A stretch of DNA of 45,740 nt, taken from the NCBI GenBank assembly GCA_026388595.1, contig JAPLJM010000045.1, positions 1 through 45,740 of the forward strand, written 5' to 3'. Below are positions 23,822-26,587 of the stretch, in pieces. Every line of letters begins with the position of its first letter. Position 1 is the stretch's first letter. The notes under the pieces are model-generated. The model worked only from the letters and a program-made list of their open reading frames with translations. It did no database searches and was not told the origin of the DNA. This DNA is from Deltaproteobacteria bacterium. Its GTDB lineage: Bacteria; Desulfobacterota; Syntrophia; Syntrophales; Fen-1087. The position numbers and the translations under genes were made by a program.

Positions 23822-26587
23822 TCAATTTGCCGCCTGCATGTCAAGTATTTTCTCATCTTTATTTTCGTCAACGGCCGGCTCCGCCGCATCGGAAATCTGA
23901 TCCTCAACCGTTTTGATACCCAGCTTCTTGTATATTGAGAAACCCGTCCCTGCTGGAATCAGGCGTCCCATGATCACATTTTCCTTGAGCCCCCGCAAAT
24001 AGTCCGTCTTGCCCGCCATCGAGGCTTCCGTAAGGACTCGGGTCGTCTCCTGAAAAGACGCTGCTGAAATAAAGCTTTGCGTGCTTAGAGACGCCTTTGT
24101 AATGCCCAGCAGAATCGGTTTCCCGACCGCCGGCCGGCCCCCCCTGGCGACAACCCGTTCATTCTCCTCCTGGAATCGATATCGTTCCACCTGCTCGTCG
24201 GCAATAAAGGAAGAATCGCCAGGATCCATCACCTTCACCCTGCGCAACATCTGACGAACAATGACTTCCATATGCTTGTCATTGATTTTGACACCTTGTA
24301 ACCGATAAACTTCCTGGACTTCATCCACCAGATAACGGGCCAGTTCTTTTTCCCCCTTAATCGTCAGTAGATCATGAGGGTTGTTGACCCCGTCCATCAG
24401 GGCCTCCCCTGCAGAAATTCTGTCGCCCTCCTGAACACTGACATGCTTCCCTTTGGGAATCAGATATTCCTTCTCCTCACCGTTTTCCGGGCTGACGACA
24501 ATCTTCCGCTTCCCCTTGGCATCTTTTCCATAAGAAACAATGCCGTCGATTTCACTGATCACCGCAAACTCTTTTGGTTTGCGGGCTTCAAAAAGTTCCG
24601 CCACCCGGGGAAGACCTCCGGTAATATCTTTGGTTTTGGTCGTCTCTCGGGGAATCTTGGCCAAGATGTCACCGGCGCTGACCATATCACCTTCGGAAAC
24701 AACAAGGTTGGAACCAATAGGCAAAAGATGACGGGCCGCAATGGCGCTGCCCGGCATTTTCGCAGTTTTTCCTTTTTTGTCTTTTAGGGATACGCGCGGA
24801 CGCAGATCGGTTCCGCGGAATTCCACAATGACTTTTCGTGAAAGGCCGGTCACCTCGTCGAGCTGCTCCTGCATGGTTTTACCCTCAATGATATCTCCGA
24901 ACTTTACCGTCCCGTCAACTTCGGCCAGAATCGGGATCGAGAAGGGATCCCATTCCGCCATCAGATCTCCCTTGCGGACGACGCTGCCGTCAATGACTTT
25001 CAGATGGGCGCCATAGGGCACCGTGTATTTACCGCGGCTCCTCTGCTGTTCATCCAGGACATGCACTTCCCCGTTCCGGTTCATGACCACCAGGTCTCCA
25101 CCTTTGGACTGAGATGGTTTATCGATCTTGCTCTTAACCGTACTCAGGTTTATGAATCTAACCGTTCCGTCATGCCGGGTCTGCAAGGTTGAATGTTCTT
25201 CGAATTTTGCCGTTCCGCCAATGTGAAAGGTTCTCATGGTCAGCTGCGTCCCGGGCTCACCGATGGATTGGGCGGCAATGATCCCGACGGCCTCGCCGAT
25301 ATTCACCAGGTGTCCATGGGCCAGATCCCGGCCATAGCAGCGGGCGCATACCCCGTGTTTGGATTTGCAGGTCAAAACAGACCGGATCTTCACCTTTTCA
25401 ATGCCGACCCGGTCAATTTCATCGGCAAGCAATTCGTCTATCTCCTGATTGGCTTTAACCAGCACCTCGCCTGTAAAGGGATCCCTGACCTCTTCCAGCG
25501 TAACGCGGCCGAGAACCCGCTCGCCTGCGGGTTCCATTATTTCTCCACCTTCCATCAAGGCTGAAACGTCAATGCCGTCAATGGTTTCACAGTCATCCTC
25601 ATTGATGATACAATCTTGGGCAACATCGACCAGGCGACGGGTCAGGTAACCGGAGTTTGCCGTTTTCAGGGCTGTATCGGCCAATCCCTTCCGTGCCCCG
25701 TGCGTTGAAATAAAATACTGCAAAACGGTCAATCCTTCTCTGAAGTTGGCCGTAATGGGCGTTTCTATGATCTCCCCCGATGGTTTGGCCATCAGGCCTC
25801 TCATGCCGGCCAGCTGTCTGATCTGGACTGCACTGCCCCTGGCCCCGGAATCCGCCATCATGTAAATAGGATTGAAGCTCTCCAGCTTTTTCTTCGTACC
25901 TTCGGGTCCGTCCGATTCTTCCATACCGATGCCAGAAAGCATTTCGACGGCAATCTTCTCAGTCGCCTGGGCCCAAATATCGATGACCTTGTTATAGCGC
26001 TCTCCGTCGGTGATCAATCCGTCCATGTACTGCTTCTGAATTTTAAGCACGTCCTTGTCTGCCCGTGCGACGATGTCCTTCTTGTTGGCGGGCACGACCA
26101 TATTATGGATGGCAATTGATGCACCGGACATTGTGGCATATTTGAAACCCAAGTCTTTAAGGCGGTCCGCCAGTAAAACGGTCGTTTTGTCCCCACAGGA
26201 TCTGTAACAATGGTCAATAAGATTAGACAATTCTTTCTTATTCATCACCTTATTGATCAGATCGAATTGTATCTGTTCTGGAATAATTTCATGCAGAATG
26301 ACCCGCCCAACCGTGGTTTCTTCCATTTTGCCACGAATCCGGACCTTGATCTTAGCCTGAAGATCCACCGCCCTGGCATCCAGGGCACTACGAACTTCGC
26401 TCGGGTCGGCAAAGACCATCCCCTCGCCCATGACCCCCGGTCTGGACCGGGTCAAGTAATAAATACCAAGGACAATATCCTGACCGGGAATAATAGACCC
26501 TGGCTTCCGTCTGGGCTTCGATGGACAACGGGATATGCACCGCCATCTGATCACCGTCAAAATCAGCATTAAATGCCGTACATACAA
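23822..26587 (-). CDS. rpoC: DNA-directed RNA polymerase subunit beta-prime, C-terminal fragment of an interrupted gene
   Basis: The ORF is RpoC-like only from [16 protein letters not shown] (codon at 26494) onward, about 890 aa. It contains [39 protein letters not shown] and [15 protein letters not shown]. The first 31 codons (26587..26495) are an out-of-frame read of the NADFDGD region. Confidence 0.9.

Follow-up and report, generated by a model that had tools for sequence, protein, structure and literature searches.

A 50-bp deletion splitting rpoC in a Syntrophales contig, most likely an artefact confined to one record

The beta-prime subunit of RNA polymerase, encoded by rpoC, is essential, and its bacterial form is described by the NCBIfam profile TIGR02386. 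In other phyla, beta-prime is found distributed over two ORFs, as in the cyanobacterial and plastid rpoC1 (gamma) and rpoC2 (beta'') genes and in the archaeal A'/A'' subunits; these natural splits lose no residues and are shared by the whole lineage. In phage T4 gene 60, on the other hand, 50 nt are skipped by translational bypass. A broken conserved gene is also a known outcome of metagenome assembly and consensus errors, in which a single isolated indel disrupts the reading frame in an otherwise clean contig. The rpoC gene described here, which is read as two overlapping fragments, is compared with each of these systems.

The sequence analysed, referred to as the window, is a stretch of 45,740 nucleotides (contig JAPLJM010000045.1) whose closest relatives carry the names Thermodesulfobacteriota, Syntrophales and Smithella, which points to a Syntrophales-like member of the Thermodesulfobacteriota living in freshwater sediment or wetland. 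It carries the ribosomal-protein and RNA polymerase genes in their canonical arrangement, located entirely on the minus strand in the order tRNA cluster, nusG, rplKAJL, rpoB, rpoC, rpsL, rpsG, tuf and the S10/spc/alpha operons. The following genes frame rpoC, and L081 denotes a more distant JGI contig (Ga0401391_007428) with 81-85% nucleotide identity across rpoC:

34740..35276, minus strand: nusG, next to the tRNA cluster
28037..32128, minus strand: rpoB, beta subunit of 1363 aa, intact, immediately upstream of rpoC
23385..23756, minus strand: rpsL, intact, downstream of rpoC; the L081 equivalent is Pfam Ribosom_S12_S23
22900..23370, minus strand: rpsG, intact, downstream of rpsL; the L081 equivalent is Pfam Ribosomal_S7

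Pfam RNA_pol_Rpb2 domains are on record for rpoB genes of the same length in near-identical contigs. Directly after rpsG, tuf (397 aa) is found with no fusA (EF-G) between them (window 21577..23370), and the order in L081 is identical. Five tRNA genes (Trp, Thr-GGT, Gly-TCC, Tyr and Thr-TGT) are located at 35514..36212, on the higher-coordinate side of nusG, and a separate tRNA-Pro at 39234..39310, while an Rfam scan returned tRNAs only.

From the ORF list and frame-by-frame translation, it was verified that rpoC in the window consists of two overlapping minus-strand ORFs in different frames, which bears out the two ORFs of the preliminary description. Their components, given relative to the intact RpoC of a near-identical JGI metagenome contig (L082), are as follows:

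27944..26388, minus strand: first ORF, 518 aa, beta-prime and then nonsense
26587..23822, minus strand: second ORF, 921 aa, nonsense up to KPGS and then beta-prime
26496..27944, minus strand: N-terminal part of rpoC, 483 in-frame codons, 100% identical to aa 1-483 of intact L082 RpoC
23822..26494, minus strand: C-terminal part of rpoC, 890 in-frame codons (26494..23825) and a stop, 99.9% identical to L082 aa 501-1390
26495..26496, minus strand: deletion junction, with 50 nt absent relative to all near-identical sequences and a placement ambiguous by 1 nt
26388..26495, minus strand: tail of the first ORF beyond the frame shift, with 35 nonsense codons and a stop, corresponding to rpoC codons 501-536 in the wrong frame
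26495..26587, minus strand: spurious N-terminal extension of the second ORF, 31 codons ending in KPGS, corresponding to rpoC codons 453-483 in the wrong frame

The only 'start' of the second ORF lies inside out-of-frame rpoC sequence and is no real start. In the gene sense, the junction reads GCC AGG GTC, T, ATT ATT CCC GGT, and between the last good codon, GTC (26498..26496), and the first good codon of the other frame, ATT (26494..26492), there is only one T (26495), in full agreement with the preliminary description; the in-frame codon counts likewise agree with the lengths of 483 aa and 890 aa originally given for the good parts. One T of microhomology is the only homology flanking the deletion. 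When the intact L082 RpoC was searched against the window by tblastn, aa 1-483 and aa 501-1390 were matched and aa 484-500 were absent, a pattern that would not be expected if the break were a chance reading of the frames. The same search revealed no further gap or stop in either part of the gene.

The 17 lost residues (codons 484-500) correspond to E. coli beta-prime 483-499; the alignment, which has no gaps, covers the intact relative around the break and residues 442-534 of the E. coli subunit in solved structures, most residues being identical. The N-terminal fragment retains NADFDGD, which corresponds to E. coli 458-464 (N458/D460/D462/D464); the segment following this motif occurs in every relative examined but not in the window DNA. 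Thus, the break was correctly located just after NADFDGD, although the number of missing residues, first put at 16, is 17. The lost segment is part of the conserved region that bears the catalytic aspartates and, since beta-prime is essential, its loss together with the frameshift in the only copy should be lethal.

Comparison with the TIGR02386 profile leads to the same boundaries. Like other bacterial RpoC proteins, both fragments are collinear with the profile, retain NADFDGD and lie in the canonical rpoB-rpoC-rpsL-rpsG locus, the N-terminal fragment covering profile positions 2-464 (862 bits) and the C-terminal fragment positions 482-1146 (904.9 bits). Unlike them, the window copy has no counterpart of the 17 positions 465-481, is frameshifted, and neither of its fragments reaches the cutoff of 963.5 bits alone, while the intact L082 RpoC scores 1821.7 bits over positions 2-1146.

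Two long overlapping ORFs in different frames, together with the existence of split beta-prime subunits in other phyla (represented by the cyanobacterial gamma and beta'' profiles), could suggest that beta-prime is naturally divided in this organism, as in cyanobacterial rpoC1/rpoC2 or archaeal A'/A'', or that the two frames are joined by programmed frameshifting or bypass. However, the gamma profile TIGR02387 reaches approximately residue 570 of the intact protein and the beta'' profile TIGR02388 starts at approximately residue 580, while the window is broken at 483/501, so the cyanobacterial boundary is placed about 90 residues downstream of the window break; gamma chains in PDB measure 624-626 aa. 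Natural splits preserve every residue and extend to a whole lineage, whereas the window has lost 17 residues, its two ORFs overlap in different frames and near-identical strains carry an undivided gene. Neither frameshifting nor bypass could supply the 17 invariant residues, since they are not encoded in the DNA, and a bypass of the T4 gene 60 type was rejected, given that here the 50 nt are missing rather than extra. In fact, all close relatives carry one continuous gene that contains the segment, and none was found that naturally lacks it and carries two separate genes, which refutes a natural split; the probability left to this reading, frameshifting and bypass included, is next to nil.

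The content of the missing stretch was established from near-identical sequences. Using an exact 24-mer from the left flank of the junction, two JGI metagenome contigs (L082 and L083) were retrieved, which are 99.2-99.4% identical to window 23633..33609 with no gaps except an insert at 26495, and a third JGI contig (L085), 99.6% identical, presents the same 50-nt insert and one gap besides. No other indel occurs near rpoC in these three contigs (99.2-99.6% identical to the window). In the gene sense, they all read GTC T[TAATGATGTCCACCAACAATATTCTGTCTCCCGCGAACGGGAAACCCATT]ATT ATT CCC at the site, that is, 50 nt beyond the window sequence, and with these 50 nt (positions 4227-4276 of L082) the rpoC of L082 becomes one continuous ORF of 1390 aa. 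The out-of-frame internal deletion in an essential gene proposed in the preliminary description is thereby upheld, with its size corrected from about 47 nt to exactly 50 nt (17 codons minus one base) and the intact length from about 1389 to 1390 aa. The full sequences of six further relatives (P0001-P0006), whose N-terminal parts are 92-98% identical, were also read; each contains the segment, in a stretch that continues with [KM]PIIIP[GS]QD, and in an ENA contig with an identical RplL the rpoC gene was called at 1391 aa.

Numerous public metagenomes, of freshwater sediment, wetland, soil and pond origin, contain near-identical copies of the stretch. The junction was examined in Logan contigs of ten public runs (X1-X10), which represent eight samples and at least six studies, and the extra 50 nt were present in all of them; two other runs (X14 and X16) had no coverage of the site. 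In each of the ten, one contig flanks 26495 on both sides, with 49 unaligned letters and 1 shared base giving the net gain of 50 nt. No contig of the deleted form was detected in these runs, in which the depth at the junction was fully accounted for by the insert-carrying contig. A 62-nt probe spanning the junction, which contained only 2 sampled words, was found in no indexed run, and an exact search for the 518-aa product returned no record anywhere. Three raw-read runs (X21-X23), derived from the samples of two insert-carrying runs, gave zero coverage at 12-18% sampling. The deletion is thus absent from all other populations sampled, and sister sequences with extra nucleotides at about 26495 that restore a single ORF, anticipated as the mark of an artefact, were found in three JGI contigs and ten runs.

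These sequences belong to strains close to that of the window, not to the same one. The best-matching run contains 0.89-0.94 of the window's words and is about 0.2% divergent, which corresponds to a different strain, and with a second probe of 9.4 kb no run exceeded 0.94 of words. The exact RpoB is not on record, the exact RplL occurs only on contigs of at most 13.8 kb from other samples, and a scan of genome contigs returned relatives at no more than 78% protein identity among the matches listed. Over window 1..36900, the strain assembled from run X1 (99.8% identical) differs by substitutions and one in-frame CCG indel only, and the 50-nt loss is the sole frame-breaking difference between the two. 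The CCG insertion of the X1 strain is located at window 24812, within the C-terminal part of rpoC, and the difference between 1391 aa in the ENA contig and 1390 aa in L082 fits a one-codon length polymorphism at this position.

Since every near-identical environmental copy checked keeps the 50 nt, the break is almost certainly an error of the record and not biology. An assembly or consensus error, already the preferred reading of the preliminary description, is supported by the intact 50 nt in all relatives and by the failure to find any deleted form. Nevertheless, the deletion could be real: the source DNA could have contained an rpoC mutant, very recent, non-viable or complemented, that the assembler followed, and this mutant could have been relic DNA, a single chromosome copy in a polyploid cell or a subpopulation. 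The sequence itself is unambiguous, which is in agreement with such a mutant. However, the same species lacks the deletion in ten runs and in three JGI contigs, the junction occurs in no indexed run, and the loss would remove 17 invariant active-centre residues and shift the frame in an essential single-copy gene. Moreover, the consensus of an assembly normally reflects the most frequent allele, a lethal one cannot be in the majority, and no flanking repeat is present to promote slippage. A real deletion is therefore considered unlikely.

The comparison between strains also bears on the functional state of the gene. Between the window and L082, 24 rpoC codons differ, of which 23 are synonymous and 1 is non-synonymous, a proportion indicating that purifying selection has maintained both halves to date. 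The single amino-acid difference is at codon 542, where an adjacent double substitution (26370..26371) determines Ala in the window and Met in L082, L083, X2, X4, X6, X8 and a minor X1 contig. A decaying pseudogene was rejected, considering this proportion and the absence of further lesions in either part, although the lack of decay would also fit a very recent event. Alternatively, a second, intact rpoC could function elsewhere in the genome, the window copy being a dead paralogue. No second copy was found within the 45.7-kb window by tblastn with L082 RpoC; the broken copy occupies the canonical rplJL-rpoB-rpoC-rpsLG locus, the same locus is intact in near-identical strains, and purifying selection acted on both halves until now, all of which make this possibility extremely unlikely. 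It is also very unlikely that the deletion is real and that a disrupted canonical rpoC was briefly tolerated, through a second copy or through polyploidy sheltering the lethal allele, at a frequency high enough to dominate the assembly.

Therefore, the 50-bp deletion is most probably confined to this record and introduced during assembly, consensus calling, polishing or later processing; we infer strongly, rather than demonstrate, such an origin in place of a mutation in the source DNA. According to this artefact reading, the organism would carry in nature one ordinary rpoC of 1390 aa in the usual rplJL-rpoB-rpoC-rpsLG order. In the window, the loss of 50 bp takes out codons 484-500 minus one base; the frame shifts at this point and, due to the 17 lost residues and the frameshift, ORF finders report two overlapping fragments. 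The split rpoC is, accordingly, a flaw in the record and not a biological feature of interest.

How the 50 nt could have been lost was also considered. The fold of the intact region at the DNA level presented z = -2.2, and no stem brackets the deleted 50 nt. Replication slippage or template switching is not supported, in view of the 1 nt of microhomology and the lack of a bracketing hairpin, and for the same reasons no obvious case of de Bruijn-graph collapse accounts for the loss. Without a flanking repeat or a bracketing hairpin, no specific assembler failure mode is evident. A removed gap may conceivably be the origin, since it would fit an exact loss of 50 nt without homology. The isolated single indel, which disrupts a conserved gene while the rest of the contig is clean, is shared with metagenome assembly and consensus errors in general, but typical homopolymer or polishing errors are smaller than a loss of 50 nt that no repeat flanks. 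The clean remainder of the window counts against an artefact, being unusual for an error-prone assembly. In the literature on assembly errors in metagenome-assembled genomes, nothing specific to such a case was found.

Breaks of rpoC at other positions were also observed in relatives of the window. In L081, about 13 nt are missing at 8329-8430 of the contig (NSG|YLTR|RLVDV lost), the frame is shifted and the gene is called as products of 784 and 576 aa. Similarly, four long ENA/NCBI contigs (P0002 and P0004-P0006) present rpoC genes with frameshifted tails at other positions. These cases indicate that fragmented rpoC calls are a common assembly symptom in this clade.

If the record is left uncorrected, rpoC would be annotated as a pseudogene or as two genes, marker-gene completeness would be lost and a truncated beta-prime might enter phylogenies; since sister contigs supply the sequence of the missing 50 nt, flagging the record is possible. 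Were the deletion true, the organism would bear a lethal lesion in its canonical rpoC and need a second copy or polyploid sheltering, and the evidence points strongly away from this situation.

Two other places in the window showed irregularities in the contigs of run X1. At 35794..35969, where the Gly and Thr tRNA genes lie, depth was high and a back-joint from 35925 to 35844 was observed. At 369..471, immediately past the window's first gene, 101 nt are skipped by one X1 contig (depth 11), and the very high X1 contig depth (205) in the bin 1..570 suggests a length-variable or repeated element, although a search of 1..1200 revealed no repeat.
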